Source of the DNA: a bacterium
Lineage (GTDB): Bacteria; Hydrothermota; UBA3073; JACQXS01; JAQTXJ01
DNA: 64,000 bases
Assembly (NCBI GenBank): GCA_041649255.1
Contig: JBAZNK010000004.1
Span: 28,647 to 92,646 of the forward strand
Direction of reading: 5' to 3'
Below, piece by piece: positions 14,521 to 34,928 of the stretch. The first letter of the stretch is position 1; each line of letters begins with the position of its first letter. The notes under the pieces are model-generated. The model was not told where the DNA came from. It ran no database searches and saw only the letters and a program-made list of their open reading frames with translations. Both the position numbers and the translations under genes were made by a program.

Positions 14521-14726
14521 TTATCTCCTCTTTTCTGCACCTGTCTGCCATTTTTTGACAGATATTCCCCATGTTTTATTTCTAATATATATATTTGATA
14601 TTTAATTTTTTTACAGACTCTTTGGTAATAACCATTAGAGCTCGTTATCCCGTTCCAGCGGGGGATTTTTAATTTATCTCTCATTATGCATGCCCATTTC
14701 TCACCCACTACTCATATCTCTTTCTC

Positions 14727-16223: not shown

Positions 16224-18423
16224 CTTTTTCTAAAAGCTCCTTTAAAACTGCTTGTCGAAAACTATCAACACTATTTGTAACTTGTCCCCGTTTGTCAAAC
16301 ATAATCCCAAGACTGGAGTCATATTCCTGGAGATTTAAAATTGGAACGCACCAATTCCCGGAGACTATACTTAATATTTTTTCACATCTATCCACATATC
16401 TATAATGTTGATGGACTAATTGGTACCCTGCTTTTGCTATATGCTCCCTTTCATCTTCATTTTCTAAATAATATTTAATTTTTTTCACCAGATCATCAAA
16501 ATCGTGCACTTTCCAATAAATCAGATGCTTTCCGTTTGCAAACATATCCGGCATTGAAATCTCTTCTGTAAGTGCAAAAGTCCCTGTTCCAAGAATTTCA
16601 TGCAGCCGTGTCTCTGTATTTAACAACTCTGTAAAGTGAAGGTTGAGAAAAATCTTACATTGATTGATAAAACAATTTAATTCTTCTCCATATACGCTTT
16701 TATAAACTATGTTAATTCCTTCTTTCTGGAGAGAATTCAATATTTCTTGCCTGCGAGGGGAAATAAGTCCTGAAAAGCCAATATCATATATTTTAGGGGT
16801 ATCTATCTTTTTATGTATTTTAGGATTTACTCCTGAGGTACTTACCCAAAATACATTCTTTCCACCGAGTTCTCTTATTTCATTAAGTGCGCTATAGTCG
16901 TGATGAAAGAACATATCAAAAGCTGATATATTTTGTTTAAGGTTTTCTGCGTTTATTTTTGACCTCCAGTCAGCAATTTCAGAACGCTGGTGAATTAATT
17001 CACCATACCATACAACAGTAGGTTTTGGGAAGAATTTGATCACCCCCGGGGGAATACCGTGTCCCTGTAATACTATTGTTATATCGGCAGATGAATAAAT
17101 AACATTTGAAAGACTTTCTTTACGGGAATCAAAAGTCTTTATTTCATACCCAAGCTGTTGAAATGCATCTAAAACATGATATTCGACTCCCCATTTGTTA
17201 CTAAAAACACCAACAAGATTTATCTTTTTTATCGGATATTCCAAATTTTCTTTTTTTGAATGCAATGCCACAATTTCTCTAATTTGACAAGTTGAATCCG
17301 TCTCGGACAGACTCGCCTCAACCTTTTCCCCTTTTCCGTACCTACCTGCCAATTCACTTTGCAGGTCTCCATCTCCCAAAACTTTCAAAACTTCCAACCA
17401 ACGTTTTTCCCATGTATGTTCTCTAAGCGCCCTTTTTCTCGCATTAATACCAATCCTTATAGTTTCTTCGGGATGGGCAATATAATACTTTACTCTCTTT
17501 AGAAGTTCTTTTTCATTTCGATAAAAAAGAATTTCTTTGTCCAGTTCAAAATAATTGGATAATTCTTCATTATAAGTGGTTAAATATGCAACTCCGGTCA
17601 TTGGAACCTCAAAGTCTCTGCCTTTCATTGCTTTTGCATCTTTCGTATATCCAAATCCTAAAGTAATAAATGAATTATGATAAATTCTAATCATTTCTTC
17701 TTGTGAAACCTCACCTTCAGGCCACTCCTTGCCTCTTGCATAAACAGGGATTCCATTCTTTTTTAGCATTTCAATAATCCCGGTACGGATACCGTAGTTT
17801 TGTCCTATAAAACTAACGGGTATATTTTTTTGAATTGTTCTTCTCTCTTTCCCAAAAACCTTCTCATTTGCCCCGGGAGGAACAAATAAAGGTGTCGCGC
17901 CAACTGACAAATATTTTTCCACATCCTTCCTACTCTGTGCAGTAATACAAACATCAAAAATAGAGGCTATTTCTCCATTTCCACTCCACCCTGTTGTTTC
18001 TTTCTTGCCCCAAAAACAACTCGTATCATCAAAACCAAAATTTATCGTTATTATACCCATTTCATTTATCTGTTGTATGGTTTCTCTAAAAACCCATCTA
18101 CCGGAAAGATACCCAAAAAAAATATGGATTGGCTTTTGCAAATGCGCTTCTTTCACTTTTTCTAACAATATATTATTAAACTCATTTTTTTTAATAGTAT
18201 GCCAATCTAAGGAATATTGATTATATTCTTCTCCCCAATCATAATGGACAACATCCGCAATCTTATTCCATGAATCCACTAAACCGGCTTTTTCCCAATT
18301 AATGTTTTTTACGGCAATAAAAATTCTTGGACGGGTATTATAAGGTATTTTTTTGTTCTGCTGTTTCAATTTATTTCTGATTGACCTTACCAAATCCTTG
18401 TCTTTTATAAAACTCTTATCCAT
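16216..18423 (-). CDS. Protein with two tandem CgeB-like (DUF3880 + Glyco_trans_1_2-type) glycosyltransferase-like domains
   Basis: 735 aa; two repeats each ending in the CgeB-family motif (...ARKRALREHTWEKR... and ...AKAGYQLVHQHYRYVDR...). Confidence 0.5.
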   Translation of the reverse strand: MDKSFIKDKDLVRSIRNKLKQQNKKIPYNTRPRIFIAVKNINWEKAGLVDSWNKIADVVHYDWGEEYNQYSLDWHTIKKNEFNNILLEKVKEAHLQKPIHIFFGYLSGRWVFRETIQQINEMGIITINFGFDDTSCFWGKKETTGWSGNGEIASIFDVCITAQSRKDVEKYLSVGATPLFVPPGANEKVFGKERRTIQKNIPVSFIGQNYGIRTGIIEMLKKNGIPVYARGKEWPEGEVSQEEMIRIYHNSFITLGFGYTKDAKAMKGRDFEVPMTGVAYLTTYNEELSNYFELDKEILFYRNEKELLKRVKYYIAHPEETIRIGINARKRALREHTWEKRWLEVLKVLGDGDLQSELAGRYGKGEKVEASLSETDSTCQIREIVALHSKKENLEYPIKKINLVGVFSNKWGVEYHVLDAFQQLGYEIKTFDSRKESLSNVIYSSADITIVLQGHGIPPGVIKFFPKPTVVWYGELIHQRSEIADWRSKINAENLKQNISAFDMFFHHDYSALNEIRELGGKNVFWVSTSGVNPKIHKKIDTPKIYDIGFSGLISPRRQEILNSLQKEGINIVYKSVYGEELNCFINQCKIFLNLHFTELLNTETRLHEILGTGTFALTEEISMPDMFANGKHLIYWKVHDFDDLVKKIKYYLENEDEREHIAKAGYQLVHQHYRYVDRCEKILSIVSGNWCVPILNLQEYDSSLGIMFDKRGQVTNSVDSFRQAVLKELLEKDE

Positions 18424-18484
18424 AATTATTTCTATAAACTATATTTTTTTAATATTATTTTTCTTACATTTACACTAATCACTT

Positions 18485-20368
18485 TTATTTCTCGGGCAAG
18501 GGTTTTACAGCAACTACCCTGAGGAAGTGGTCCAGACTTTTCCCCTCTTTCAGAGCCACATCAGTATGGTAATCTCGTGGTATTTCTTCAACAATATTCT
18601 CAAACCCACTTTCTTTAAGAAAACGGGATAACCTCTCAAAATTATACCCTGCTAAATGACAATCCGCTCTGCTACGTTGCCCGCCAAAAATCATCGTCAT
18701 ATTATGGTCTGTTGGGGCATTCATATAATCTTCAATACATTTATCCCCATTTGGACATTCAATAATCAGCTTCCCCCCGGGTTGAAGCACCCTGAACCAT
18801 TCTTTCAACATTTGTTTAGCTTCCGGTATTAAAACATGTTCTATCATATGATATGATTCTACCAGTTCCGCGCTATTACCCTGGAATCCTAAGCTACATG
18901 CATCCATTATTACATCTGCAAACGAATTCTTGTAAAGGTCAATATTAACGTATCCTTTTTTATATACTTTACCACAGCCAATATGTAACCTTAGCTTGTT
19001 ATCACAAACCTGTACTAACGGCGCATAATCATTTAATTCTTCTTTCATCACCCTTAATAAATTTCGTTTCAGGGTATTAAAATCAAACTTTTCACATACC
19101 AACTTTCTTGCATTTTTACTCATTTTTTCCACTAACCGTGGATTATTGGCCAAAAAATTCATTTTTATTGCCAGGTCATTTAGATTAACAATTTCCTCTG
19201 GGAAAGCAATATTATCTTCCCTCACTACTTTATTTGCAACCTCTACCAATAATCCATTATGTTTATTTTTAACAAACTCATTCATAGGAGGAGCATTTGT
19301 AGTGATTGCCGGCAAACCACAAGCTAAGGCTTCTATCAAACTCAAGCCCAATCCATCTAATTTGGACGGGTAAACATAAATTAATCCTTTATGGTAGAGT
19401 CCAGGTAGAGGAATTGTTCCCACACAATAAGTAATTCTTTCATTCTTTTGGACAATCCCAACAATTTCTAACGGTAGTTTTTCCAATCCAATCTGGGAAT
19501 GAATTAAAAGAGAGAAATGAGGATTATATTTTGATATCGCATCAAAAGCCAGTATAACCGCAGGAGTCATCTTACGATAATTTATTCCCACCCATCCCGC
19601 ATTATGGAAAAAAGTATATTGAGCTTTTTCTTTTTTAGGCATAAAAAGCTCGGTATCTGTTCCCCAACCAATATAATGAGCATTGCAAAAATCTTTAACA
19701 AGGTCAAAAGTTCTTTTCGTAGAACACAATACCATATCATACAGTTTCATATAAGGCTTCCAATCTTCCTTATAATAATCAAGATAAGTTATGATTTTTA
19801 CTCCTTTTTGTTTACAAAAAATAATTAGATTCCAATCATACTCTTCATTAAATATAATCATACCTATATTGTTATCGTCAATCCATTTTGCAATTATATT
19901 GTGTGGGATAAGATACTGATTAAAAGTTGTAAGGTTCGAAACTTCCCATTCTCCCTTTGTTTTTAAAGAAGGATTCTCAGGCGTTCCTCCATTCCTTGCA
20001 AAAACAAAAGTATTGTATTCTTCGGACAGCGCATCTCTTATTGTTTTTGTGACATACGCCTGACCTCTTTCAAACCACAAACTTATAAATCCAATATTAA
20101 GTTTATTAGAACATTTTTTTCCCTTTCTTGCTTGGAGTTTTGCTTCGCCAGAAACATTAGTGCAAGTTATCCTGCTCCGCCGTGCTTGCTTACAAAGTCT
20201 ATATATAGAAGAATAACGTTCTTTTACTTCAGGATGTGCTTCTGTTATTGCATCTAACCTAAGCATTGCTTCTTCTGTTTTCCCGCACTTAATTAATGCC
20301 CGGATACGAACTATTTTATCATCAAAATTCATATTCCTCAATTGCCACTCTAATCCCGAGTTTGCCAC
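18485..20368 (-). CDS. Bifunctional protein: N-terminal TPR-like helical module + GT-B glycosyltransferase + C-terminal class I SAM-dependent methyltransferase
   Basis: 627 aa; GT-B motif (GLGLSLIEALACGLPAITT); C-terminal MTase motifs (LHIGCGKVYKKGYVNIDL motif I; LQPGGKLIIECPN). Confidence 0.65.
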   Translation of the reverse strand: MANSGLEWQLRNMNFDDKIVRIRALIKCGKTEEAMLRLDAITEAHPEVKERYSSIYRLCKQARRSRITCTNVSGEAKLQARKGKKCSNKLNIGFISLWFERGQAYVTKTIRDALSEEYNTFVFARNGGTPENPSLKTKGEWEVSNLTTFNQYLIPHNIIAKWIDDNNIGMIIFNEEYDWNLIIFCKQKGVKIITYLDYYKEDWKPYMKLYDMVLCSTKRTFDLVKDFCNAHYIGWGTDTELFMPKKEKAQYTFFHNAGWVGINYRKMTPAVILAFDAISKYNPHFSLLIHSQIGLEKLPLEIVGIVQKNERITYCVGTIPLPGLYHKGLIYVYPSKLDGLGLSLIEALACGLPAITTNAPPMNEFVKNKHNGLLVEVANKVVREDNIAFPEEIVNLNDLAIKMNFLANNPRLVEKMSKNARKLVCEKFDFNTLKRNLLRVMKEELNDYAPLVQVCDNKLRLHIGCGKVYKKGYVNIDLYKNSFADVIMDACSLGFQGNSAELVESYHMIEHVLIPEAKQMLKEWFRVLQPGGKLIIECPNGDKCIEDYMNAPTDHNMTMIFGGQRSRADCHLAGYNFERLSRFLKESGFENIVEEIPRDYHTDVALKEGKSLDHFLRVVAVKPLPEK

Positions 20369-20514
20369 GGGATATGTATATTTATTTTATATAACAAAAA
20401 ACTAAGCTTTGTCAATGCTAATTTTTCAACAAATTCTTAGCTGCTTAGAGTTTGTTATCCTTAATAGAGTGAAGAATTACAAGTTTTTATCTGTCTGCAT
20501 TAGTCTAAGTGGTT

Positions 20515-21708
20515 TTAATCGAATTCTTTTTTAATCAAAAATAATTTTTCAAGATGCCCCGACAACCCATACCCTGGTTCAATTTTTATAGCTCTTTGTA
20601 AATATTCTATCGCGTTGTCAATTTCGTTTTCTTCTTCGTATAATTTTACTAATTTAAGATATGGAGTAAGGTAATCTGGAGTAATTTCAATCGCTTTTTT
20701 ATAATAAAAAATAGCTTTTTCAATAATCCCAAGACACTCATAATTTGCACCTATCATTCCATATATTACGGACGGGGATACTTCCATATTAAATAATGAC
20801 TCGGTATTCCGTTTATTTAATTTTTTCATCCCATTTTTCAATTCTTTGATACTTTCTAAATATTCTTTTTTCAAATTATACGATTGTGACGCCATAATAT
20901 GTAACATAAAGTCATCCGGATATACCCTTAATGTCTTTCTAAACCATTTTAATGCCTCGTCCGGTAATTCTTTTTTATTATAAATATCAATTATATGAAG
21001 CATCCCCGGTAAAAAAATGGCTGATATTTGTGAAACAACTGCTTTCTTAAAATGCTCAATAGCTGTATCATAGTTACTCATAGATTCATATTTTTCACCA
21101 AGATAGAAATTAACAAGAGGGTCCGTTGGTGTTTCTTTATAACATTCTTTTAGCATATTAATTCTTTCTCCGTCATTTTTGTCCTTAGCTAAATATCCTG
21201 TATGGTATATGAAGATGTCTGTAATTCCTATTTTCACCCCTAACTTTTTAATGGAAGACTCTATCTGATTATGTATTTTTCCATTATAACAAATGCCGGG
21301 AATTTTTTTATAAAGTCTTATTAAAGTATTCACTGCAAATATAGGACTGTAAGGGGCAAGAAAATTTTTAGTGTTAATACTGTACGCACTGCACACCGGA
21401 TTTTGAAGAACTTGTTTGATTTTTTCTTTATTCCCAGAATCTATATATTCATCCGCATCTATAATCAGTATCCATTCTTTTGTTGCATATTTTAATGACT
21501 CATTCCTCGCTGCCGAAAAATCATCGCACCACTTAAAATAATATACTTTTGCTCCATATGACTTGGCTATTTCTACCGTTCTATCGGTTGAACCGGTATC
21601 TACTACTATTATCTCATCTACTAAGTCCTTAAAACTATCCAGACATCTTGGTAAATTCTTTTCCTCATCTTTTACAATCATACATAGGGATATGCTTTGT
21701 TTTTTCAT
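20515..21708 (-). CDS. GT2 family glycosyltransferase fused to TPR repeats (GmaR-like), paralog 3 (shorter, 397 aa)
   Basis: The first ~95 codons are near-identical in DNA to paralog 1 (21451-21708 vs 13141-13405); the remainder has diverged. Confidence 0.75.
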   Translation of the reverse strand: MKKQSISLCMIVKDEEKNLPRCLDSFKDLVDEIIVVDTGSTDRTVEIAKSYGAKVYYFKWCDDFSAARNESLKYATKEWILIIDADEYIDSGNKEKIKQVLQNPVCSAYSINTKNFLAPYSPIFAVNTLIRLYKKIPGICYNGKIHNQIESSIKKLGVKIGITDIFIYHTGYLAKDKNDGERINMLKECYKETPTDPLVNFYLGEKYESMSNYDTAIEHFKKAVVSQISAIFLPGMLHIIDIYNKKELPDEALKWFRKTLRVYPDDFMLHIMASQSYNLKKEYLESIKELKNGMKKLNKRNTESLFNMEVSPSVIYGMIGANYECLGIIEKAIFYYKKAIEITPDYLTPYLKLVKLYEEENEIDNAIEYLQRAIKIEPGYGLSGHLEKLFLIKKEFD

Positions 21709-21923
21709 AATTATTAATTTCCCTAATGTGAATTATTTCCCATAAACTCTGCCAAAAGTTGCTTTTGAAATAACCATTGGATTTTTTTATACGATAGGTA
21801 TCGGGACTTGATTTTACACTTCGGGACCCCGCTATGACAGCCGCATCAAGTCCATTTTCATCGACATCGGACATCATCAACGATGTTCCTACATCTCATT
21901 TATAACTATTCTTAATTACTTAT

Positions 21924-22538
21924 TTACTTTTCCAATTCTTTATTAACTATTTTAAGATTTTCTTTAGCTGTTTTATTATCCGGTTCAACTTTTAAAACTT
22001 TCTCATACCCTATTTTAGCTGATTCGTATTTACCCATCTTAAAATAACAATTAGCAAGCGCTATTAATGACCCAACTTCGGGTTGTTTTAATAATCCCGC
22101 CTCATAAAGAGGAATTGCCTGTTCATATTTACCGAGTTCAAAATACACATCTGCAAGGTTTTTCTTTGCACATATATTATTATCATCCATAGCAATTGCA
22201 GAGTGGAAAAAATTCTCAGCTTTTTTCTTATCTCCTCGGATAAAATATAAAGCTCCGATATTGCTATACACCTCTGTTGAAGGCTCAATATCAAGTGCCT
22301 TTTGATAAAATTCAATTGCTTTTTTAGAATCCTTTTTTATTGAATATATATTACCAAGGCCTATATACGGTTGGACAATGTCAGGATATTCCTTACTTAT
22401 CTCCTTGAATTTTTTTTCTGCCTCGTCAACTTTTCCGGTTTTTAAGAGTTTTATAGCTTGTTCAATTATTTTGTCCGGTTTTTCAAAATTTGTGTTAGGC
22501 ATTTGTTTCTTTGAAGATTTACTTTTTTTTGTATCCAT
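21924..22538 (-). CDS. TPR repeat protein with Lys-rich N-terminus
   Basis: 204 aa; 4-5 TPR units (AIEFYQKALDIEP, YEQAIPLYEAGL...). Confidence 0.65.
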   Translation of the reverse strand: MDTKKSKSSKKQMPNTNFEKPDKIIEQAIKLLKTGKVDEAEKKFKEISKEYPDIVQPYIGLGNIYSIKKDSKKAIEFYQKALDIEPSTEVYSNIGALYFIRGDKKKAENFFHSAIAMDDNNICAKKNLADVYFELGKYEQAIPLYEAGLLKQPEVGSLIALANCYFKMGKYESAKIGYEKVLKVEPDNKTAKENLKIVNKELEK

Positions 22539-22922
22539 TCTACCTCCTTCACTTCATTCGGGATATTTACCAGCCATTACCCAAAAGCTTCTAATCCCTT
22601 ACTCCATTTATTTTAAGAATTCCCTTCTTAAAACCATTGCTATGTTTCTTGCTATTTCATCTATTTCAGATGTATTATATAAATCAGTTACTGATTTATT
22701 CTGAATCGTTTTACACCTCTTTGCTACTTTTTTACCGTATTTCTTTTCTCTTTTTTTGTTTCCGTTCATAAATCCTCCATAGCTAAATATCTATATGTAT
22801 TATAGTATAGCAAATTCCGTGTCAAATGTAAAACTCTATAATTCATAGGGATTTCGACAATATATGCAATATGAGATATGAACATTCCCTCCTATTACAG
22901 CTAATTTTCTGCCCATTGTTTA

Positions 22923-25900
22923 TTAGTTATCATTTTTTAAAGTTTTATTTTCTTTAATAATCTTTACTTCTCTATTCAATCTTTCCGATTCCTGTGCAAA
23001 TCTAATAGATTTATCTTTTTCCCCTATTACTCTATAGCAAGTGCTTAAAATTTTATATGCAATCACCTTTTTAAATGCCTCTGTAAGCCTTCCTTCCGAT
23101 ATTAACTTTTCAAGTATCTTAATCGGCTTATTAAAGTTCTTTTGCTGCATAAAAACCATAGCAAGTTGGAAATAATAATACGCCTCTTCTTCTTGAGGTA
23201 GAATAATTACTTCCGGATAAAGTGTGCCTATTCTTTCAATCCCATTTTTAAAAGAGTTTTCTGCCTCTTGATACTTTTCAAGTTTTAAATAATATTCTCC
23301 AAGAAAATAGTACGGCAATGGAGAATTTGGAATAAGCTTGCTCGCAAAAATTACATTTTCAATAGCCTTTTTGAACCCTACTTCTCCTGCACTAACAGCG
23401 CTTTCTATAAGATATTTCAATGCATCATTTTCTTTGTTTATTTTTTCCACTTTCATTTCTTTTTCTTCAATAAACTTTTTTATCCAATCTTTTCCTTCAT
23501 ACCAGCTAATAACCCCATCAATCCCTTTTGCATAATAATAATTTAAAATAAGGGCGTAGCAAGTCTCTAAAAGCGGATCCCTGCTGAACTTGTAACTTTC
23601 TAATTCTTTTTCTGATAACTGCTCCAGTTTGGATACAAGATTTTCGGTATATTTTACTAATTCTTCCCTGTTATAAAAATCACATAAACATCTTCTTTTC
23701 GCTTCTTCCAGACTCCACATATCGGTATGCGGACATTTATAAGACAAAATGCCAAAACTCTCCCCTACTTTTACCTGTCTTTGAATATAACTTTTCAACT
23801 CCTGTTTATGATAATGATAAACGATAGCATCGGCATTATAAACTATTCTGTATTTATTTAGGGTTAATCTTAAACCTAATTCCGAATCCTGCCATCCATA
23901 TTTTAGGCTCTCATCAAACAGACCCGCTTCTTCAAAAGCGCTTCTTCTTAATGATATATTCGGGGCATAAAAATATCTAAATTCAACGTTGTCAGGAGAT
24001 TCAATACTCTCATAAGCAAACTGGATATCCCTGTTTTCTATATAGTTTATAAAATGCGATTTTTCTATTTCAGAAGGCCTTTGAATATACCCTAATACCA
24101 CTGTATTCTCATCCCCTTGTTGATGAGTATTTAAATGCTGCTTTATTAAATCTTTTTTTGCAATTACATCCTGACACGAAAGCAAAATGAATTTTCCCTT
24201 AGCTTCCTGTATCCCCTTATTTGTAGCAGCAGATTGACCTTTATGGGATTGTACATACTGCTTAAATTCACATGGGGCTTTTAATCCTTTAATGGCATCA
24301 ATAGTCCCATCCGTAGAACCATCGTCAACTACGATAATTTCCAAATCATCGGCATTAATACCATCCTGGTTGGCAAACGAATCAATACATTTAAGTAAAA
24401 TTTCTTTGTTATTATAAGAAGGAATAACTACCGATAATAGTTTTTCCTCGGGATACGTAAACTTAACTTTAATTTTATCCATTAAATCGGGTTTTATATG
24501 CCATACGGCAGTATCTTTAGCTTCTATAATCTTATATCCTTTGTTTATTATGCCCAATATAATTTCTTGCAAATTCTTACATTCCTTTGGTATAATTTCC
24601 TTTTTAATAATCATACAAGGAACATTTATGTTCTGAACTACAGTTTTTTCATTTCTGTATTTCTTATAATTTTCCCATACATCATTTTCAAATTCATATA
24701 TAAAATTATACTTAAAGGGCAAACTACTAGGAATAACTATTCCAGCGTCTTTCTTCCTATTTAGGTGACTCATTAAATGTTTATCCCATCGCAATGAGAC
24801 AACAACCCCACTATCCAGTATAGCAATATACTTACCCGAAGAATTTTGAATTATGTAATTTGTAATGTTTTCAAGTTCTTGCTCGTTTTCATATTTAATA
24901 TAAAACTTAAAATTTCGCTCCAATTCTCTGGCAATTTTATCACTTTTTGTCGCAATTAGTATGTCTGATAATTTCTCATCCGTATTAATTACCAAATTTT
25001 CTATAGAAGTTTTCGATATTTCCGTATCCTCCGTTACAATAAAAATTATAGTAAGTTCATTTAACAAATGAGACAACAAAGAAGAATCATAAGAAACTTT
25101 AAACCTTTCCGGGTATTTTTCTTTCGGCTCGGGTAATGTATTCCCAAGGTGAATTAACCTTTTTTCTACCATTTCGACGCTATAATTATCTTTAATAAGA
25201 GCTTTCCCATTTCGAGATAGTCTTTCCCACAATTCTTTATCATTATATACTTTAATTACCTCATTAGCAAAACTCTCAGGCGTATCTGCAATTAATCCGT
25301 GTTTGCCATTTTCTATTCCAATTCCTTCCGCTCCAATTGATGTGGTAACCACCGGAATGCCATTTGCAAGCGCTTCGGTCACTTTTCCTTTCATCCCCGC
25401 CCCATAAGTCAAAGGCGCAACCGAAATGCAACAGGAGTCAAGATATACATTAGTGTCGGGTACATACCCCGTTACGATAATGTCTTCAGACTCAAAAGCT
25501 CTAACTTCCGGAGGAGGAGCATTGCCAACTATAAAAAACTTTATATCCGGTAATTTTTTCTTAATTAAAGGAAATATCTCTTTACAAAAATATAACACCG
25601 CGTCTACATTAGGAGTATGTAAAAAACCTCCTACAAACAAAATATCTCCCCTGTTTTCCCTGCCAATAAAGTCTTCCGTGATTTTATGCGTATTGGGCAA
25701 AATTCTTATATCCAAATTGGGAGATTCCTTTAAAAGCGCTTCTCTATCCGTTTCGCAAACGGTTGTGACTACATCCATTTTTTCATAAGTTGCCAACTCT
25801 TTAATTTTATTATATGTAACTTTTCTAAAAAGAGATGGAATTCCTAAAATTTCTGCTTCTCGGAGTTCTCTCATAAAATGCACATCGTGACTATCCAGCA

Positions 25901-27050
25901 CCGTAACACTTTGTGGAGAAAATTTCCTTATAAAATCTATCCACCTGTCTGCAATATTATAAAATTCCAGAGAAACCAACTTAAATTTATTAAAGGTAAG
26001 CAATGCTTCAATTCCTTCGGGAAAAAGAGGATCATAAATTCCACTAATATGCCGCTTTAAATCACAATGAAAAACTGCTACATCCAATTCTTCCAATTTA
26101 TCTACATATTTTTCATACCCGAGTAAATCTTCCACTATAAACACAACATCATAATATTTCTTTAATATATTTATTTTTTGATACAGTCTCAATCCACCAG
26201 ATGAAGCGTCATACCAGGGAGGATATTCGGCAATTATTAATATTTGTTCTTTTTCTGACGGAACTTTATAAAAAGCGCTCTTATAATTACTTAAAACTTT
26301 TTCCCATTTATTAATAAACTTTTCCCTGTTAACTTCCTGGTGTTTTTTCATCCCGGATTTCACGTCCGTTCCTGCTGTTCCCCCTTCTATATGAGTAACC
26401 AGGCTTTTAGGTTGATACATTACCCTAAGTCCCGCTTCTCTACTTCTAAAACACAAATCAACATCTTCAAAATAGCAGGGACAAAACAATTCATCAAACT
26501 CACCGGTTCTATCTAAAGTACTTCGTTTAATATACATACAAGCGCCTGAAGAATAATCAATCTCTCTCTGATGATTATATTTTGGCTTATCGGGATTATC
26601 TCCCCTGCCGATATTTCGTGTTGCCCCATATCTAAAAATATTTCCTCCCCCTGCTTCATTTATAACACCGGTAGGATAAATAAACTTTGGGGCGACGATA
26701 CCAATATCTTCGGAACTATAAGCGCATTCAATTAATCCTTCAAGCCATCCGTTATGAACTAATGTATCATTATTTAATAACAATATGTCATTCTTTGCAT
26801 AAGTCCTCATAACCTGATTCATAGATAATACAAAACCTACATTCTCAGGGCTATTGATAACATCAACTTTATTTTCTAAACTTTCCAAATATTCTTTAGT
26901 CCCATCCGTACTCGCCTGGTCAAATACGCATATTCTATAATAAGGAGTTTTGGTATTCTTAAAAATACTTTCAATGCAATTCTTTAATAAATCAGCCCTA
27001 TTCCAGGTTGGAATAGTGATTATAACCGGTCTGTTTTTATCTGGTTTCAT
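22923..27050 (-). CDS. Giant multidomain glycosyltransferase: GT2 (GT-A) + GT1/GT4 (GT-B) + second GT2 + C-terminal TPR repeats
   Basis: 1375 aa. N-terminal GT-A (PVIITIPTWNRADLL...DQASTDGT...EDVDLCFR). Central GT-B (LFVGGFLHTPNVDAV...GMKGKVTEALANGIPVVTT). Third domain GT-A (LSVVIPSYNNKEIL...VVDDGSTDGT). C-terminal TPR. Confidence 0.7.
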   Translation of the reverse strand: MKPDKNRPVIITIPTWNRADLLKNCIESIFKNTKTPYYRICVFDQASTDGTKEYLESLENKVDVINSPENVGFVLSMNQVMRTYAKNDILLLNNDTLVHNGWLEGLIECAYSSEDIGIVAPKFIYPTGVINEAGGGNIFRYGATRNIGRGDNPDKPKYNHQREIDYSSGACMYIKRSTLDRTGEFDELFCPCYFEDVDLCFRSREAGLRVMYQPKSLVTHIEGGTAGTDVKSGMKKHQEVNREKFINKWEKVLSNYKSAFYKVPSEKEQILIIAEYPPWYDASSGGLRLYQKINILKKYYDVVFIVEDLLGYEKYVDKLEELDVAVFHCDLKRHISGIYDPLFPEGIEALLTFNKFKLVSLEFYNIADRWIDFIRKFSPQSVTVLDSHDVHFMRELREAEILGIPSLFRKVTYNKIKELATYEKMDVVTTVCETDREALLKESPNLDIRILPNTHKITEDFIGRENRGDILFVGGFLHTPNVDAVLYFCKEIFPLIKKKLPDIKFFIVGNAPPPEVRAFESEDIIVTGYVPDTNVYLDSCCISVAPLTYGAGMKGKVTEALANGIPVVTTSIGAEGIGIENGKHGLIADTPESFANEVIKVYNDKELWERLSRNGKALIKDNYSVEMVEKRLIHLGNTLPEPKEKYPERFKVSYDSSLLSHLLNELTIIFIVTEDTEISKTSIENLVINTDEKLSDILIATKSDKIARELERNFKFYIKYENEQELENITNYIIQNSSGKYIAILDSGVVVSLRWDKHLMSHLNRKKDAGIVIPSSLPFKYNFIYEFENDVWENYKKYRNEKTVVQNINVPCMIIKKEIIPKECKNLQEIILGIINKGYKIIEAKDTAVWHIKPDLMDKIKVKFTYPEEKLLSVVIPSYNNKEILLKCIDSFANQDGINADDLEIIVVDDGSTDGTIDAIKGLKAPCEFKQYVQSHKGQSAATNKGIQEAKGKFILLSCQDVIAKKDLIKQHLNTHQQGDENTVVLGYIQRPSEIEKSHFINYIENRDIQFAYESIESPDNVEFRYFYAPNISLRRSAFEEAGLFDESLKYGWQDSELGLRLTLNKYRIVYNADAIVYHYHKQELKSYIQRQVKVGESFGILSYKCPHTDMWSLEEAKRRCLCDFYNREELVKYTENLVSKLEQLSEKELESYKFSRDPLLETCYALILNYYYAKGIDGVISWYEGKDWIKKFIEEKEMKVEKINKENDALKYLIESAVSAGEVGFKKAIENVIFASKLIPNSPLPYYFLGEYYLKLEKYQEAENSFKNGIERIGTLYPEVIILPQEEEAYYYFQLAMVFMQQKNFNKPIKILEKLISEGRLTEAFKKVIAYKILSTCYRVIGEKDKSIRFAQESERLNREVKIIKENKTLKNDN

Positions 27051-27061
27051 ATAATTCTGCC

Positions 27062-27092
27062 CTTTTTATTAAGCCACAGAATTCACAGAAGG
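27062..27092. repeat. Left arm of an imperfect inverted repeat (CACAGAA units) flanking the GxxExxY gene
   Basis: AGCCACAGAATTCACAGAAGGACACAGAAAA here; its reverse complement TTCTGTGATTTCTGTGTCATTCTGTGGCT lies at 27611-27640. Confidence 0.55.
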
Positions 27093-27143
27093 ACACAGAA
27101 AATTCCCTCGTTTATTTCTGTGAATTTCTATCTTCCGCATCTC

Positions 27144-27527
27144 TCAATACACCATCCTTTTTACTTCACACTTTTTCTCTCCAAAATTTAAAAGAAGTCC
27201 TACTTTTACGTTTGTAGTCTTAAGGTAATTTGATAGTTGAGATTCATTTTTGGAATTGTACTCTTTGTCTACTTTGAGTTCTACCAATACTTTTTCCTCG
27301 ACATAAATGTCACAAGCAAAATCTCCAACAGGTTCTCCTTTATAATGAACACTTATAGAGAATTCACTTTTGGCTTCTATGCCTCTTAATCTAAGTTCCA
27401 CAAGTAATGCATTTTTATATACCTTTTCTAAAAAGCCATATCCCAAGTTTTTGTAAACCTCAAAAGCAGCCCCAATTATCTTCTCTGTTAACTCTTTGTA
27501 TAAAAATTCCTCTGATTTCTGCGTCAT
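27144..27527 (-). CDS. GxxExxY family protein (PD-(D/E)XK-like; family typically found in rRNA intervening sequences)
   Basis: 127 aa; family signature LTEKIIGAAFEVYKNLGYGFLEKVYKNAL...; flanked by inverted repeats. Confidence 0.8.
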   Translation of the reverse strand: MTQKSEEFLYKELTEKIIGAAFEVYKNLGYGFLEKVYKNALLVELRLRGIEAKSEFSISVHYKGEPVGDFACDIYVEEKVLVELKVDKEYNSKNESQLSNYLKTTNVKVGLLLNFGEKKCEVKRMVY

Positions 27528-27610
27528 TCTTTAACTATAAGTTTTATTGGTTTTTTATTTGTTTAACTTTATTCATTATTATATTCTCTATTAACTTTTT
27601 GTATAAGACA

Positions 27611-27640
27611 TTTCTGTGATTTCTGTGTCATTCTGTGGCT
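27611..27640. repeat. Right arm of the inverted repeat flanking the GxxExxY gene; additional CTGTG units follow up to 27720
   Basis: See left arm; extra TCTGTGACTA, ATCTGTGTGCTA and TTTCTGTTTTTG units plus the hairpin CCTGCCTGACGGCAGGCAGG at 27681-27700. Confidence 0.55.
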
Positions 27641-27758
27641 ATAATTTTTATCTGTGACTATCCTTCTACTCCCTGCCTGACGGCAGGCAGGTGTGCAAAT
27701 CTGTGTGCTAATTTTTCTGTTTTTGTTTTTCTTTTCCATTTTCTCTTTGGTCCACTCC

Positions 27759-28805
27759 CTATAATTTTATACACTTCTCAAGAACTTTTTCCGGCAAAAT
27801 AATTGACATACAATCCTTTTCGCATTTACTTTTATAGCACCCCAAACAATCCAATTCAGGTTCAATAATCTCTCCAAGCCCATATAATTCAAACTCATTT
27901 CTGTTGAAAATATTATTCAGAAGTATTATTTTCTTTTCAAATCCTATCGCTATATGTAAAGCCATAGTGACCTGTGTAACCACAACTTCGCACACATTTA
28001 CGACCCAAAGAAAATCCTTTAAACTGAAAGTCCCCCAGTATTCTGCTCCGCTTTTTGTTTTTATCCTTTTGTTTTTTTCGTCTTCCTGCGGTCCTCCCAA
28101 AAGAAGCGGAATAAAACCGGCGCTTTTTAATTTTTTAGCTAATGTTACCCAGTTTTCTTCGCTCCAGTTACGAGTTTCCCATCTCCCCCCGCATCCCGTA
28201 TTTAATCCTACTATGCGACCTTTTAATTTTGGGAGTTCCGGGGACTTACCTTTAAGTTCAAGAATATATTTTTCGCCTGAGAAATTAAATCCGCAAACTT
28301 CAAATATTTCCTCAACATAATGTTTTTTATTAGCTTTTTCTATATCATCCCATAATCCCGTTAAAAACTTATGTTCGGCATCTTTATCAATAGAACTGCA
28401 TTTGCCGTCTTTAAGAATAAAACCCTTTTTTATATCCGCAGAAATAAGCCTTGCAAGGGAACAAGTTTCCTTGTCTTTATCAAGATTGTAAAGTATGTCA
28501 AACTTATCTCCTAAAAGAGATACGACGTTTGAAAGCTCAAACTTCATAGGATAATCTACGATAGAAGGCAAAAGTTCCGGGAATATGCTTAACCATGTAA
28601 TCTCGCTATCGGGATATATCTCTTTGAGTCTTCTTAAAATTGGAGTTGTTCTTATAACGTCTCCTGCTGCGCCAAATTTTATTATTAGAATTCTTTTTGA
28701 CACCTCTTTATAATATTCACAATTGTCACAATGAACTCCCTTTTCTTTATGGAATTTACAAGGAATATCCCCTTTGTAAAACCTGCAATTAGTTTTAATT
28801 TTCAT
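27759..28805 (-). CDS. GT9 family glycosyltransferase (heptosyltransferase-like) with N-terminal Cys4 zinc-ribbon-like motif
   Basis: 348 aa; GT9 motif (ILIIKFGAAGDVIRTTPILRRL); N-terminal C-x7-C-x9-C-x2-C; overlaps the start of the upstream radical-SAM gene by 11 nt (translational coupling). Confidence 0.6.
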   Translation of the reverse strand: MKIKTNCRFYKGDIPCKFHKEKGVHCDNCEYYKEVSKRILIIKFGAAGDVIRTTPILRRLKEIYPDSEITWLSIFPELLPSIVDYPMKFELSNVVSLLGDKFDILYNLDKDKETCSLARLISADIKKGFILKDGKCSSIDKDAEHKFLTGLWDDIEKANKKHYVEEIFEVCGFNFSGEKYILELKGKSPELPKLKGRIVGLNTGCGGRWETRNWSEENWVTLAKKLKSAGFIPLLLGGPQEDEKNKRIKTKSGAEYWGTFSLKDFLWVVNVCEVVVTQVTMALHIAIGFEKKIILLNNIFNRNEFELYGLGEIIEPELDCLGCYKSKCEKDCMSIILPEKVLEKCIKL

Positions 28806-31800
28806 TGCCCCTTCCTTTTAGAAATGCTTCTCCTATTTGTGGCATAATGGTGCATAAAAGCCAGCAATGGCATTTCCCGCTGTTCATAAAATCCCGAATC
28901 TTAGTTGCTTTGGACGATTCCCATAATTTATCAAAAGGAGTATCTTTAACATTCCCAACTAACATCTGTTTATTCATCGGACAGAAAAAAAGGTCTCCTT
29001 GAGGATTAAACATAGCAAAATGCACTCCTGCCATACACTTCTTAAAAACTCTGGTAGGATGTAATTGATATTCAACTAAATTCGACCAGAAATATAATTG
29101 CGCAAGTAACCCTATATCGCTTGTAATTGATGTCGTTCTTTTTGCATCAATCATTTTTTTAAGTATTATTTCGATAATGCCTTGAACTTCCAATAACTTT
29201 TCCTTGCTCCATTTCGGGTCCGGCGGTAATACAAATTGAGCCGAAAATATACAATTAAGCCTATTTACAAATTCATAAACAGGCAATAGTTCCGTATAAT
29301 TGTCAGGAGTAACTGTAAAATTAATATTGTAATGAATGTCTTCAAACTCTTTCTGCACTTGAGTTATTGTTCGGACTAAATTATTAAATGCATCCTTTCT
29401 GCCCCTGATTTCATTATGCTTTTCAAATAAGCCGTCAAGAGAAGACCCCAGCCAGATAGATTTTGGCTCATACTTCCTTTTTACCTCCATAAGTTTTTTT
29501 ATCGTTAAATTCGCATCCATACTATTTGTCAAAATTCCAATACTCGCTTCCGGCAACTGTTCTGTTAAGCAACCGCATATTTCTACAAAATCTTTTCTCA
29601 AAAAAGGTTCTCCACCGGAAAGGACTATAGATTTAACATTTTTAAGATATTTGGAATCTCCGATAAACTTCTGAATTTCTTCAAGTGTTAATTGTTTTTT
29701 CTCTAACTCCGGGAATTTGCTGTATTTATCCCACAAATCACAAAAAGTGCATTTACAATTACACCTGTAAGTTAATTCCATATGTAGTTCTTCAGGCCCC
29801 TTCCCTAAATTTATTGCATTATCTATTTTTGGAATTCCTTTTTGAATAGTGTGGTTAATGCTCTCTAAAAGATACTTAAATGGATATCCCTTAATATTAT
29901 GCTCTCTGTACAAGTCCTCTATTTCATAATACAGATTTATTAGAGAAGGGTCTATCTCTTGCGCTTTACGCAGATATGCAATTGCTTCATCTATCTTGCC
30001 TTGCATTTTGCATAAGTATCCCATATTAACGTATGCATCAATATAATCCGGTTTAATTGAAATGGATTTTTTGAAACAACTTTCCCCGTCCTGAAGCTTG
30101 CCAACAGAAACCATTGACACCCCTGTAATATCCCAGATTTCATAATCATCCGGCACGCAAGATAACAATTTTACAAATAGTAAACAGGCTTCTTGTAATT
30201 GTTGGTTAGAAGCCCATTTTTTCCCGAGTTCCAAAACCCATTTTTTTAAATCCGGGTCAATGCTTAATGCTTTTTGAAGCAACTCTTTAGGAAAATCTAA
30301 CTTCCCGGTATTAAAATATAATTTACATAGAATAGAATAAACTTTTGTTGACTCAGGATGCGCTGATAAAACACTTTCCAATTTTAAAATCGCATTCTTG
30401 TAATCTCCTGAATTTATAAAGTTTTCTGCTTCATTTATTTCTTTATCAACTCCCCTTACAGACGGAACTTTTTCGTTAGCTTTTGTATCTTTCCCCGTTC
30501 CCCATTCTTTAATTTCCTTTAAACATTCTTCGTATAAATCCTGTAATCCGATTTTTTGATAGCAGAACGCAAGGTTTTGAATAATAGAGATATTGCGGGA
30601 TTCTTTTTCTATGGAGTTAATAAAATATGGAATTGCTTTTTCAGGTTCTCCTGTATTAAAATAATAATTACCTATGAGATTATTTCTGTTCAGTAATCTT
30701 GGAGCAGGGTAAACACTTGGAACTTTCAAATCCCACGCAAGTTGGCAGAACTCTTCAAATCTTCTTAAACGCACTAAATAAGTATTAGAGCCATCTTTTG
30801 ATTCCCAATACTCTCCTCCTTTACTAAAATCAATGTCAAATTCTTCCTGATGGTCATAAGCATAAGTCCCGGGAGCAAAGCTGCAAAATGCAGGGCAGGG
30901 ATTGACAGTCCCAATATAATCTTTATTTCTTCTTAAAAACTTAAGCGTCTCTCTGAAATCTTCTTCTGTTTCCCCAGGCAAACCAAACATAAAATTAACG
31001 GCACAACTAAGGCCGGCTTTACAACCATCTCTTACTATTTTCTCAGGGTTAATATCTTTTGCCAACAATTTTCCTGCCTTTAACATTAAAGGAACTGAAG
31101 CAGTTTCCATTCCGTATCCTAATGCTACACACCCTGATTGTTTTAATTTAAGTAAAAGTTCATAAGTCATATCCTTTCTCATAATTGCCTGACCGCTCCA
31201 CTGGATTTTCAGCCCATCTTTTACTATGAAATCAGCAAGTTTTTCTAACTCCTTAACACTTCCATTGACCAAACTATCCTGAAAATCAAAGAAACTTCCT
31301 TTTGGATGTTTTTTCAATTGATACAACATTTCCTTATACATATTTTCTGCCGTTCTGAATCGAAATCTTTTCCAGAAAGGACGTTCATTGCAATACACAC
31401 ATTTATTACAGCATCCCCTGCTTGAGATAATTGGAATTTTAAATGGTTCTTTATAATCATTGAAATCGTAATCCGAAAAATCCGGCATTGGCAAAGAATT
31501 AACGTCTTTAATTAACTCTCTATCCCCGCAATCAACCACTTCGCCATTTTTACATATAAGCGTCCCTGCACAAAAATCTACTTTCGGATTTTTAACAATT
31601 TCTTCTAAAGTAACTTCTCCTTCCCCCTGGACAATAAAGTCTACGTTTTCATCTTTAATAATTGCTTTTCCTGCTAAGTCCCTGCTTACATGGGGACCAC
31701 CAAATACAATAATTATTTTGCTGTTTTTTTTCTTAATTTGTTTTGCCAGGTAAAGACTAATATATAAAGAAGAAAAATATATTGAAAATCCAACAACTTT

Positions 31801-33768
31801 TGCTCCACTGCCTAATATTATATCTACATAGTCATTTAAATAATTCTTATGATATTCTATAAACTCATCTACCACGGATGGATTATTCCAGAATGCAAGT
31901 GATTTTTCTAACTCCCAGACATCAGTGTATTTACCTCTTCTCAATTTATAGAGTTCTATATTCAAATCTAAGGAAAGAACTTCATACCCCTGATGTCTCA
32001 CATAAGCAGTCAAACTGGCTAATGCCAGAGGCGGAGTGCTTATTCCCCATGCCGGAGCTTGAACAAGCACAACATCTGCATTCGTAATTTTATTTTTAAT
32101 GTTTGCGTCCGATAAAGACGGAAAATGTTTTTTCATAATATTTTTTACCTCTATTTTCTGGTTATTATCTTTAATTTTACCGCTTTTTTCAAGTTTAAGG
32201 TATTTATCTATAATTTTATTTTTTTTGTTAAGTTCCGCATACAAGGCAGAAAGTTTATCAAATATTTCAGTATTAAACGTTTCTTTAACTAAAGACCTTT
32301 CATAATATTTAGTCGCTTCTTGATATTTCTTTTCATAAAGATAATAATCGCCTATGAGTTTATTCTCGTTAGGTAATTGTTTGAAACCCAATACTATACC
32401 TAATGACTCTAAATGATTAGTAAATTTTTGAAATCTATTTAAACGAATTACATAATTATTTTTTCCGTCTTTACTTTTCCAGTAAACAGCATTATCGTTT
32501 ACTTCTATATTAAATTCTTCCGGGTGAGAATATGCATAACAGCCGGTTGTAAACCCACAAAATCCGGCGCTTGGATTAACTGAGCAATGAGGTCGTAGAT
32601 AGTCAGCATTTCTTGTGAAGAAATCCAAATCGGCTTGAAAATCTTCTTCCGTATCTCCCGGGAAACCGAACATCCAATTCAATCCTATACCTAATTGCGC
32701 TTTATAGCAATCTTTGATAAACTTATCAAAATCGGCATTTTTACACAATAGTTTCCCCATTTTAAGTAATTGTCCTTTTGAAGAATGTTCCATTCCAAAA
32801 CAAAGATGAAAACAGCCAGAATTATGAATTTTCTGCAATAATTCAAATGTCATTTCCGGACGAACGGTCGCTTGCCCCATCCATTCAATACCAAGATTGC
32901 TTTCTATCGCAAGGTCACAAAATTTTTCAAGGGCTTTAACATTACCATTTACCAAAGAATCAGTAAATTCAATTTTTTTTATGTTATATTTAGAAACCTG
33001 GTATTTTACTTCTTCAAAAATTTTCTCCCCTGTTCTGCTTCTAAATTTATACCAAAACACTTTTTCATCGCAATAAATACAATTATTAGGACACCCTCTT
33101 GAAGTTGTAGCCGGTAACATTACAGGCTCTTTATATAATTCAAAAGGAAAATCAGAAAAATCGGCATAAGGCAAAGAATTAAGGTCTGCGATTAATGGTC
33201 TGTCTCCACCGTAATAAATTTTTCCATTTCTGGAAAATAACACGCCTTTTATTGGGTCAAATTCTTCTCCTTTTTCAATAGCTTTGACCAATTCATATAA
33301 AGTTTCTTCCCCTTCCCCGTGAACTACGAAATCTACTTCATTTCTTAAAACAAATTCTTCTCCTTTTATGCCTCTTGCCGCATGGGGACCACCAAAAACG
33401 ATAATCCTGCTCGGGTCTTTCTTTTTAATTTCGGACGCCAATACCAAACTCATTTGTTCCGTAGACCATAGTATTGTAAAACCGATTATTTTAGAGCCGG
33501 AATTTAAAATCTCATCTACGTATCTATCTATTAATTTCTTATGTGCCTTTACAAAATTGCTTACCGCTTGAATATCGCCCCAGAATCCTTCGTTTAATGT
33601 CCACGCATTTGCATATTTAGTATCCTTGAATTCATTATACAATTCAATATTAATGTCCCTCTTGTAAACTTCATAACCGTAAGATTTTAAATAAGCAGAT
33701 AAACAAGCTATAGCAAAAGGAGGGCTTTGTCTTCCCCATGCAGGTGTCTGGATTAATGCTATTTTCAT
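28795..33768 (-). CDS. Giant tri-radical-SAM protein: two tandem B12-binding (class B) radical-SAM domains, TPR linkers, and a C-terminal SPASM/twitch-type radical-SAM domain
   Basis: 1657 aa. Domain 1 (KIALIQTPAWG...TSRGCPNNCIYCDE: CxxxCxxC). Domain 2 (VVLVQAPAWGISTPP...SSRGCCNKCVYCNE). TPR region ~aa 1000-1290. Domain 3 (MELTYRCNCKCTFCD plus C-terminal Cys-rich CMAGVHFAMFNPQGDLFFCP...GKCHCWLLC). Confidence 0.8.
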   Translation of the reverse strand: MKIALIQTPAWGRQSPPFAIACLSAYLKSYGYEVYKRDINIELYNEFKDTKYANAWTLNEGFWGDIQAVSNFVKAHKKLIDRYVDEILNSGSKIIGFTILWSTEQMSLVLASEIKKKDPSRIIVFGGPHAARGIKGEEFVLRNEVDFVVHGEGEETLYELVKAIEKGEEFDPIKGVLFSRNGKIYYGGDRPLIADLNSLPYADFSDFPFELYKEPVMLPATTSRGCPNNCIYCDEKVFWYKFRSRTGEKIFEEVKYQVSKYNIKKIEFTDSLVNGNVKALEKFCDLAIESNLGIEWMGQATVRPEMTFELLQKIHNSGCFHLCFGMEHSSKGQLLKMGKLLCKNADFDKFIKDCYKAQLGIGLNWMFGFPGDTEEDFQADLDFFTRNADYLRPHCSVNPSAGFCGFTTGCYAYSHPEEFNIEVNDNAVYWKSKDGKNNYVIRLNRFQKFTNHLESLGIVLGFKQLPNENKLIGDYYLYEKKYQEATKYYERSLVKETFNTEIFDKLSALYAELNKKNKIIDKYLKLEKSGKIKDNNQKIEVKNIMKKHFPSLSDANIKNKITNADVVLVQAPAWGISTPPLALASLTAYVRHQGYEVLSLDLNIELYKLRRGKYTDVWELEKSLAFWNNPSVVDEFIEYHKNYLNDYVDIILGSGAKVVGFSIYFSSLYISLYLAKQIKKKNSKIIIVFGGPHVSRDLAGKAIIKDENVDFIVQGEGEVTLEEIVKNPKVDFCAGTLICKNGEVVDCGDRELIKDVNSLPMPDFSDYDFNDYKEPFKIPIISSRGCCNKCVYCNERPFWKRFRFRTAENMYKEMLYQLKKHPKGSFFDFQDSLVNGSVKELEKLADFIVKDGLKIQWSGQAIMRKDMTYELLLKLKQSGCVALGYGMETASVPLMLKAGKLLAKDINPEKIVRDGCKAGLSCAVNFMFGLPGETEEDFRETLKFLRRNKDYIGTVNPCPAFCSFAPGTYAYDHQEEFDIDFSKGGEYWESKDGSNTYLVRLRRFEEFCQLAWDLKVPSVYPAPRLLNRNNLIGNYYFNTGEPEKAIPYFINSIEKESRNISIIQNLAFCYQKIGLQDLYEECLKEIKEWGTGKDTKANEKVPSVRGVDKEINEAENFINSGDYKNAILKLESVLSAHPESTKVYSILCKLYFNTGKLDFPKELLQKALSIDPDLKKWVLELGKKWASNQQLQEACLLFVKLLSCVPDDYEIWDITGVSMVSVGKLQDGESCFKKSISIKPDYIDAYVNMGYLCKMQGKIDEAIAYLRKAQEIDPSLINLYYEIEDLYREHNIKGYPFKYLLESINHTIQKGIPKIDNAINLGKGPEELHMELTYRCNCKCTFCDLWDKYSKFPELEKKQLTLEEIQKFIGDSKYLKNVKSIVLSGGEPFLRKDFVEICGCLTEQLPEASIGILTNSMDANLTIKKLMEVKRKYEPKSIWLGSSLDGLFEKHNEIRGRKDAFNNLVRTITQVQKEFEDIHYNINFTVTPDNYTELLPVYEFVNRLNCIFSAQFVLPPDPKWSKEKLLEVQGIIEIILKKMIDAKRTTSITSDIGLLAQLYFWSNLVEYQLHPTRVFKKCMAGVHFAMFNPQGDLFFCPMNKQMLVGNVKDTPFDKLWESSKATKIRDFMNSGKCHCWLLCTIMPQIGEAFLKGRGNEN

Positions 33769-34916: not shown

Positions 34917-34928
34917 ATTTCTTTTTCA

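Follow-up and report, generated by a model that had tools for sequence, protein, structure and literature searches.

The gene and its product

The 64,000-nucleotide stretch analysed here (the window) lies on contig JBAZNK010000004.1 of GenBank assembly GCA_041649255.1, from a bacterium of the Hydrothermota lineage, and the element in question is a gene on its minus strand at 22923..27050, which encodes a large multi-domain glycosyltransferase (GT) and stands in an island beside flagellin and flagellar genes. The gene is a single uninterrupted open reading frame (ORF) with its ATG at 27050 and its stop codon at 22923-22925, and the product of 1375 amino acids is the one that the preceding sequence-only reading of the window had described. 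The ORF is not a chance frame, because stop codons are frequent in DNA with the G+C content found around it (about 33%). A database record, MFA5032171.1, is identical to the 1375-residue protein. Other assemblies also contain orthologues, 1365-1378 residues long and about 95% identical: P0001 and P0122 come from other metagenome-assembled genomes and P0123 from a Logan run. P0002, a homologue with 54% identity, has the same layout; the gene is therefore no assembly chimera, and the protein is a real multi-domain enzyme rather than an assembly fusion. A scan for promoters and terminators near the gene gave counts no better than those in shuffled sequence.

Domain architecture

Pfam was run on the whole protein and on five separate segments, and AlphaFold2 (AF2) models of two halves, residues 1-650 and 640-1375, were built with homologue alignments. 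The segment scores and the models confirm the order GT-A, GT-B, GT-A and tetratricopeptide repeat (TPR) region that had been read from the sequence. The three GT domains and the TPR region on that list were correct, but a fourth, GT-A-like domain (D3, residues 646-865) had been missed. The N-terminal half was modelled with a predicted local distance difference test (pLDDT) score of 91.5 and a predicted template modelling score (pTM) of 0.81, so that the first two domains, D1 and D2, pack as a single unit; they form a rigid cassette, the catalytic residues of which are invariant among homologues.

D1 (residues 1-262; 26265..27050, minus strand) is a GT2-type GT-A domain by its Pfam match, fold and motifs. 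Residues 9-223 score 65.9 bits against Pfam GT2 (PF00535; cut-off 23.3), and the GT-A fold is modelled at pLDDT above 90 and gives Foldseek matches to GT-A enzymes. The motifs are FDQASTDGT, LLNND, in which N93-N94-D95 occupies the DxD position, and YFEDVDLCF, which contains E195, D196 and D198. Across 34 aligned homologues, L92-N93-N94-D95-T96, D196 and D198 are invariant and E195 is nearly so. N93-N94-D95 aligns to the DCD motif of the Escherichia coli K4 enzyme K4CP, and the base motif E195-D196 is present; the D1 family thus appears to work with only the last Asp of the DxD motif. A weak NCBIfam match of D1 to rhamnosyltransferases (E 1e-11) is far below the cut-off. D2 (residues 263-645; 25116..26264, minus strand) is a complete two-lobed, GT4-like GT-B domain, as supported by Pfam PF13692, Foldseek and its invariant residues. 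Residues 465-625 match Glyco_trans_1_4 (PF13692) with 98.7 bits against a cut-off of 27, and the scores recorded for the pair PF00534 / PF13692 are 98.7 and 56.4 bits, in support of the GT4-like assignment. Foldseek TM(target) values are 0.70-0.74 to BshA, PimA and 6eji and 0.70 to MshA; BshA, PimA and MshA are GT4 enzymes of the retaining type. The motifs of D2 are GGFLHTPNVD (H478, P480, N481 and D483), YGAGMKGKVTEALANGIPVV (K554 and K556) and GAEG (E575), and H478, P480, N481, D483, G550, G552, K554, K556 and E575 are invariant in the same 34 homologues. The active sites of both D1 and D2 look clearly intact.

The C-terminal half, modelled at a pLDDT of 84.4, begins with D3 (24456..25115, minus strand), a putative pseudo-glycosyltransferase that was recognized by profile alignment, the AF2 model and its missing motifs. 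The Pfam GT2 score of D3 (19.8 bits) is under the cut-off of 23.3, and a hidden Markov model derived from D1 scores it at 10.7 bits, as compared with about 160 bits for the intact domain found at that position in the main family. On the other hand, alignment of the D3 profile with the D1 profile by hhalign gave a probability of 96.9% (E 1.7e-10, 188 columns), and D3 is modelled at pLDDT 80-90 with the same order of helices and strands as the following domain, D4. No catalytic motif is present in D3: IATKSDK stands at the DDGS position and D746-S747-G748 at the DxD position, and the loop of the catalytic base is deleted. D3 is therefore predicted to be catalytically dead, but it is a conserved pseudo-enzyme domain and not junk, because it is 45% identical between the protein and P0002.

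D4 (residues 866-1115; 23706..24455, minus strand) is a second GT2-type GT-A domain, in which residues 872-1091 score 91.6 bits against Pfam GT2 (cut-off 23.3). Besides this score, D4 has a GT-A fold, a DDGS nucleotide motif (VVDDGSTDGT) and a catalytic-base Asp within GWQ1054-D1055-SELGLRL, and C959-Q960-D961 lies at the DxD position. In 69 aligned sequences, D910-G-S-T-D-G-T, D961, D1055, E1057 and R1061 are essentially invariant, and all of them are kept here. D4 represents a GT2 subfamily different from that of D1. Together with the helical region behind it (residues 1116-1200; 23451..23705, minus strand; helices in the AF2 model), D4 corresponds to stand-alone GT2 proteins of about 300-330 residues, the alignments of which extend as far as about residue 1180; the helical region thus belongs to that stand-alone family, in which D4 has its origin. 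The TPR tail (residues 1201-1375; 22926..23450, minus strand) consists of eight helices that form about four TPR-like hairpins. The TPR_2 match at residues 1246-1272 scores 38.5 bits (cut-off 27) and is followed by weaker TPR matches as far as about residue 1360; the fold is a helical-hairpin solenoid. From motif conservation, two active sites are judged clearly intact (D1 and D2), one probably intact (D4) and one dead (D3). The expectation that several GT domains rather than one are functional holds on this basis, with the residues of D1 and D2 invariant and those of D4 largely intact.

Distribution of the architecture

A first homologue search returned at least 1296 homologues at E<=1e-10, many of which are 800-2350 residues long and combine GT2, GT4, TPR, methyltransferase or radical S-adenosylmethionine (radical-SAM) domains. 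Species-representative genomes (one genome per species) were scanned with patterns taken from the D1-D2 alignment, and at least 586 D1-D2 stretches in many phyla were confirmed. Of the 203 homologues that were collected, 95 stop after the D1-D2 pair and 79 have a third domain that looks like an intact GT2 (GT2-GTB-GT2), so that the tri-domain fusion is common. The sequence-only reading had regarded such a fusion as rare, which these counts refute. An exhaustive phmmer search of 1.84 billion representatives clustered at 50% identity recovered 10,154 relatives of D4 alone at E<=1e-10, and only about 10 proteins in which the pseudo-GT-A domain, D4, the helical region and the TPR tail occur as one stretch. 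The tri-GT fusion is therefore widespread, and only the C-terminal variant with the pseudo-GT plus D4 is uncommon.

Within the D3-D4-helical-TPR module, D3 never has catalytic motifs and has conserved motifs of its own (P.W..L..H, Y.FE and A.DT.V). The exhaustive search and the alignment show the module to be old, with D3 always non-catalytic. The idea that the main family's intact third GT2 domain gave rise to D3 by recent decay, with reciprocal degeneration of D3 and D4, was accordingly softened.

Family members occur in Eisenbacteria, Calditrichota, Ignavibacteria, Bacteroidota, Desulfobacterales, Nitrospiraceae and Bacillota, and in a deep lineage. No description of the family was found in the literature on multidomain flagellin glycosyltransferases, radical-SAM islands and RfbC, and as far as these searches show the protein belongs to a widespread, apparently uncharacterized family.

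The flagellar island and GmaR-like partner enzymes

The gene is part of a co-oriented island of about 30 kb and 17 genes at 11906..41752 on the minus strand, which is bounded by fliD-fliS-flagellin at one end and by the flagellar regulator genes and the structural operon at the other. On one side, the flagellin gene (10748..11620, minus strand) encodes a protein of 290 residues, the proposed acceptor, in which 24 of the 60 residues of the central stretch (residues 151-210; about 40%) are Ser or Thr; fliS (10267-10599, minus strand) and fliD (8279-10186, minus strand) lie downstream of it. On the other side, the opposite strand beyond the island carries two sigma-54 activators followed by flgB/C, fliE-K, flgD/E, motA and fliM-R. 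The island contains three GT2-TPR paralogues, several GT4 and CgeB-like glycosyltransferases, a TPR-only protein, the 1375-residue protein, a small PDDEXK_3 gene, a GT9-like glycosyltransferase, a 1657-residue radical-SAM protein, four methyltransferases and a radical-SAM-methyltransferase fusion. Each of the 17 island proteins has at most one marginal hydrophobic segment, and there is no multi-pass membrane protein among them; the island accordingly has no flippase, polymerase, ATP-binding cassette (ABC) transporter or polyprenyl-phosphate (priming) transferase. Genes for nonulosonic acids are absent from the window. With its position beside flagellin and flagellar genes, the conservation of this position across lineages and its solubility, the protein has the properties of a component of a flagellin glycosylation island.

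The three GT2-TPR paralogues are candidate partners. Paralogue 1 (499 residues; 11906..13405, minus strand) is a candidate initiating flagellin O-glycosyltransferase, paralogue 2 (498 residues; 14727..16223, minus strand) is 81% identical to it, and paralogue 3 (397 residues; 20515..21708, minus strand) is 54-59% identical to the other two. A phmmer search matched the N-terminal GT domain of paralogue 1 to that of Listeria GmaR (PDB 22ao; E 7.3e-37) and to SunS, a peptide S-glycosyltransferase (E 2.7e-24), and it falls in the NCBIfam SunS family. GmaR of Listeria is a flagellin O-N-acetylglucosamine (O-GlcNAc) transferase (PMC9638930). The presence of three copies in one island may reflect several initiation specificities. 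The GT-A domains of the 1375-residue protein resemble K4CP, TarP, RmlT and SpsA, and not GmaR or SunS, and in this they look like enzymes that extend glycans. A GmaR-like gene lies within 300 nucleotides downstream of the homologue in 12 fetched loci, and in two further loci, L012 (Desulfobacterales) and L018 (Nitrospiraceae), a GmaR-like GT2-TPR module is fused in frame to its C-terminus. The fusion proteins have 2714 residues (L012, 6716-14860) and 1711 residues (L018, 9644-14779), and other homologues reach up to 3274 residues (L016). Altogether, 14 of 17 tri-domain loci have a GmaR-like gene next to the homologue or fused with it, and 2 of 62 other loci contain such a gene. Gene fusion in some lineages is classic evidence of two proteins working together. 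Given this conserved pairing with GmaR-like protein O-glycosyltransferases, the most likely role of the protein is to lengthen a glycan and not to initiate it.

Other genes of the island and the contig offer separate observations. Upstream of the glycosyltransferase gene lies a GT9-like (heptosyltransferase-like) GT-B gene (27759..28805, minus strand), a counterpart of which is found 1-7 kb upstream in the homologous loci L001, L002, L004-L007, L009 and L010. Between these two genes lies a small gene of the PD-(D/E)XK nuclease family (PF13366; 27144-27527, minus strand). Locus L001, which is 95% identical, lacks this small gene, and its GT9-like gene overlaps the start codon of the glycosyltransferase gene; the PF13366 gene looks like a recent insertion. 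The 1657-residue protein (28795-33768, minus strand) combines three radical-SAM cores and two B12-binding domains with TPR repeats and a SPASM domain, and finds its best NCBIfam matches among C-methyltransferases of hopanoids and of ribosomally synthesized and post-translationally modified peptides. Its conservation in L001 is 93%. The target of this protein could be the glycan, by C-methylation, or else the flagellin peptide. Elsewhere on the contig, the closest named relatives of the product of cysS (592-1998) are only 52-57% identical and scattered over unrelated phyla, and genes for sigma-54-type flagellar regulators and a TonB_C-containing protein are also present; the lineage of the organism is a deep-branching one.

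Homologous loci in other genomes

Flanks of up to 10 kb on each side were fetched around the loci in species-representative genomes. Flagellar genes were found in the flanks of 12 of 17 GT2-GTB-GT2 loci and of none of 62 D1-D2-only loci (Fisher p 1e-10, for loci that are phylogenetically non-independent). Single homologues from independent lineages also lie in flagellar loci. P0011 (40% identity) is preceded or followed by flgK/flgL/fliW/csrA, a GT9-like gene and a methyltransferase gene, while its opposite flank holds a GT2-TPR gene together with flagellin, fliS and fliD. P0005 is located near fliS and a Maf_flag10_N protein, and P0009 near flaG. The protein that adjoins P0005 (L002, 17593-19365) combines Maf_flag10_N with a CgeB-like Glyco_trans_1_2 domain. 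P0005 and P0009 also have a C-terminal extension of about 160 residues without a Pfam match; a likeness of this extension to a Maf N-terminus, noticed by eye, was dropped, since nothing was found in Pfam at E<=1. At L033 (Curvibacter microcysteis), a 1344-residue D1-D2 protein (7865-11899) stands alone among housekeeping genes such as those for PBP1A and a branched-chain amino-acid transporter; the cassette is thus employed away from flagellar loci too.

Proposed function

Based on these observations, the protein is proposed to be a soluble, cytoplasmic, multi-site glycosyltransferase of the flagellin glycosylation island, which extends O-glycans begun by the GmaR-like enzymes; a probability of roughly 55% is assigned to this reading. 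The folds, the state of the motifs, the gene context and the pairing with GmaR-like genes are observed, whereas what accepts the sugars, in which order the sites act, which donors they use, what the TPR tail does and whether D4 is active are inferred. Flagellin would be made in the cytoplasm with its central region of about 40% Ser and Thr, and the nearby GmaR-like GT2-TPR enzymes would put the first sugar on Ser or Thr. The 1375-residue protein could then dock on flagellin, or on a complex of flagellin with its chaperone, through the C-terminal TPR tail. TPR domains of the flagellin glycosyltransferases FlmG (PMC7591256) and Maf-1 (bioRxiv 10.1101/2023.12.03.569772) bind flagellin, and flagellin binding by the TPR domain of GmaR has been proposed (PMC9638930); by analogy, docking of flagellin is proposed for the tail of the present protein. 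Once docked, it may add two or three more sugars in differing linkages, with D1 as an inverting-type GT-A, D2 as a retaining-type, GT4-like GT-B and D4 as a second inverting-type GT-A domain, while the dead D3 may serve as a spacer or as a module that holds the acceptor or the glycan. As a last step, ahead of the passage of flagellin through the flagellar export apparatus, the methyltransferases and radical-SAM enzymes of the island could decorate the glycan. The sequence-only reading had suggested that several sugars are added in succession to a TPR-bound protein, in the manner of a processive glycan builder. Successive addition is still the best reading, now with flagellin as the proposed substrate and with the protein as an extender rather than a starter.

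Several points weigh against the proposal or parts of it. The flagellar export channel is narrow and limits the size of a glycan that can pass; an oligosaccharide is therefore expected rather than a long polymer, and processive polymer building is doubtful. No nucleotide-sugar biosynthesis genes are present in the window. The D1-D2 cassette occurs in many loci, L033 for example, without a flagellar gene in the fetched flank, and for this reason the cassette itself is not specific to flagellin. Neither GT-A domain has a canonical DxD motif, D1 having NND and D4 having CQD. The EX7E motif of D2, as read directly from the sequence, is incomplete, with A551 at the position of the first Glu; the second Glu is present as E559, but some homologues have Q or K there. 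At the first position of the D4 motif, 59 of 69 stand-alone relatives have Asp, and Cys occurs only in the present protein and P0002. Finally, the catalytic residues of D4 are gone in most sister lineages with the same module, and D4 may for that reason be inactive here too.

The last two points lead to the alternative that survives best, that only D1 and D2 are catalytic, and that D4 is a pseudo-enzyme like D3 in a two-site transferase, the C-terminal half of which is purely a docking or scaffolding arm. The DDGS motif, the DxD motif and the base Asp of D4 have been lost in P0372, P0373, P0375, P0377, P0005 and P0009, and D1-D2 alone is a conserved unit in hundreds of genomes. However, D4 of the present protein retains DDGSTDGT, D961, Q1054-D1055 and E1057, and the Gln at position 1054 recurs in 13 of the 69 relatives. 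D4 is also the domain most conserved with P0002, at 64% identity as compared with 59-61% for D1 and D2, and the NND motif of D1 indicates that the first Asp is dispensable in this protein family. A protein with two active sites is thus regarded as unlikely, although it deserves the most weight among the alternatives.

An improbable possibility is that the protein is self-sufficient, one of its own domains starting the sugar on Ser or Thr of flagellin and the others extending it, while the GmaR-like enzymes act at different sites or on different flagellar proteins. It has a TPR tail of its own, as have the autonomous enzymes FlmG and Maf-1 (PMC7591256; bioRxiv 10.1101/2023.12.03.569772), and the Foldseek matches of D1 include polypeptide N-acetylgalactosamine (GalNAc) transferases. 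No domain of the protein, however, matches GmaR or SunS at E<=1e-3, and the adjacent or fused GmaR-like genes of the tri-domain loci fit a division of labour. That the island makes a polysaccharide or glycolipid, or glycosylates another protein (cap, hook, pilin or S-layer), with its flagellar proximity incidental, is very unlikely: the homologues P0085 and P0112 with D1-D2 carry the Joint Genome Institute (JGI) label "O-antigen biosynthesis protein", the cassette occurs in 62 fetched loci without a flagellar gene in the flank, and the solved GT-A structures that come nearest are those of polysaccharide and teichoic-acid enzymes, but a membrane transporter, a flippase and a priming phosphoglycosyltransferase are all missing from the 30-kb island, and members of the tri-domain subfamily show tight linkage with flagellin, fliS and fliD in several phyla, as well as with GmaR-like O-glycosyltransferases. 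No O-antigen context was recovered at the Curvibacter locus L033, so that the O-antigen link comes only from names given by the source.

The proposal of a multi-site extender of flagellin glycans can also be carried further, into a bolder and rather improbable form. The protein and the GmaR-like O-glycosyltransferases would then make up a cytoplasmic assembly line shared across phyla, each member docked through its TPR region on the same unfolded flagellin. D3, likened here to the lectin domain of polypeptide GalNAc-transferases, would act as a reader: it would grip the acceptor peptide or the growing glycan and pass the glycan to three active sites in order, and the product would be an unusually large, heavily C- and O-methylated glycan of uncultivated lineages.

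Significance and comparison with known systems

Flagellin glycosylation has so far been described mainly as single-sugar or nonulosonic-acid systems (GmaR, Maf and FlmG) in a few cultured bacteria. The present locus points to a large family of multi-site transferases that is coupled, and sometimes fused, to GmaR-like initiators beside the flagellin gene. If this is true, complex methylated flagellin oligosaccharides would be common in environmental bacteria, and the family would offer a compact system for the ordered action of several glycosyltransfer sites on one chain with a protein acceptor. It would also inform on the role of a conserved pseudo-glycosyltransferase domain and on the swapping and silencing of catalytic domains in evolution.

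The closest functional parallels are the TPR-bearing flagellin glycosyltransferases. GmaR of Listeria monocytogenes joins a GT2 domain to TPRs in a cytoplasmic flagellin enzyme, and the 1375-residue protein likewise joins GT-A and TPR; in contrast to GmaR, it has four GT-fold domains instead of one, no antirepressor domain and a short C-terminal TPR tail. The three island paralogues are true homologues of the GT domain of GmaR, whereas the large protein has no significant sequence match to it. FlmG of Caulobacter and Maf-1 of Shewanella are soluble enzymes encoded at flagellar loci, in which the TPR region binds flagellin, and this principle is the one proposed for the tail. Each of them, however, has a single catalytic domain that transfers pseudaminic or legionaminic acid. 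The FlmG type combines an N-terminal TPR region with a single C-terminal GT-B domain and is accompanied by genes for these two sugars, and by description the present protein, with its C-terminal TPR tail and four GT-fold domains, is set apart from it. No MAF_flag10 or DUF115 domain was found in the protein by Pfam at E<=1.

The second group of parallels consists of enzymes with several transfer sites. K4CP of E. coli K4 and PmHS2 of Pasteurella possess two active GT-A domains and no TPR and make free capsule polymers; the present protein, by contrast, has one dead GT-A domain, a GT-B domain in between and probably a protein acceptor. Large fused transferases with multiple activities are encoded beside fliC in Pseudomonas and build short flagellin O-glycans (PMC11833859, PMC3927599). 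By description, FgtA (PA1091, a fusion of GT2 with a phosphotransferase) and Fgt1/Fgt2 of P. syringae can be likened to the present protein and are set apart from it by different domain sets. The RfbC-type (KEGG K20444) and WbdA-like O-antigen glycosyltransferases, again by description, resemble its family in that GT2 and GT4 domains are fused, in some cases together with a methyltransferase. These O-antigen enzymes act on undecaprenyl-linked acceptors and are encoded beside ABC transporters, whereas the island described here is without a transporter. The 1375-residue protein is thus a variant that combines two known kinds of enzyme, the TPR-bearing flagellin glycosyltransferases and the multi-site glycosyltransferase fusions.

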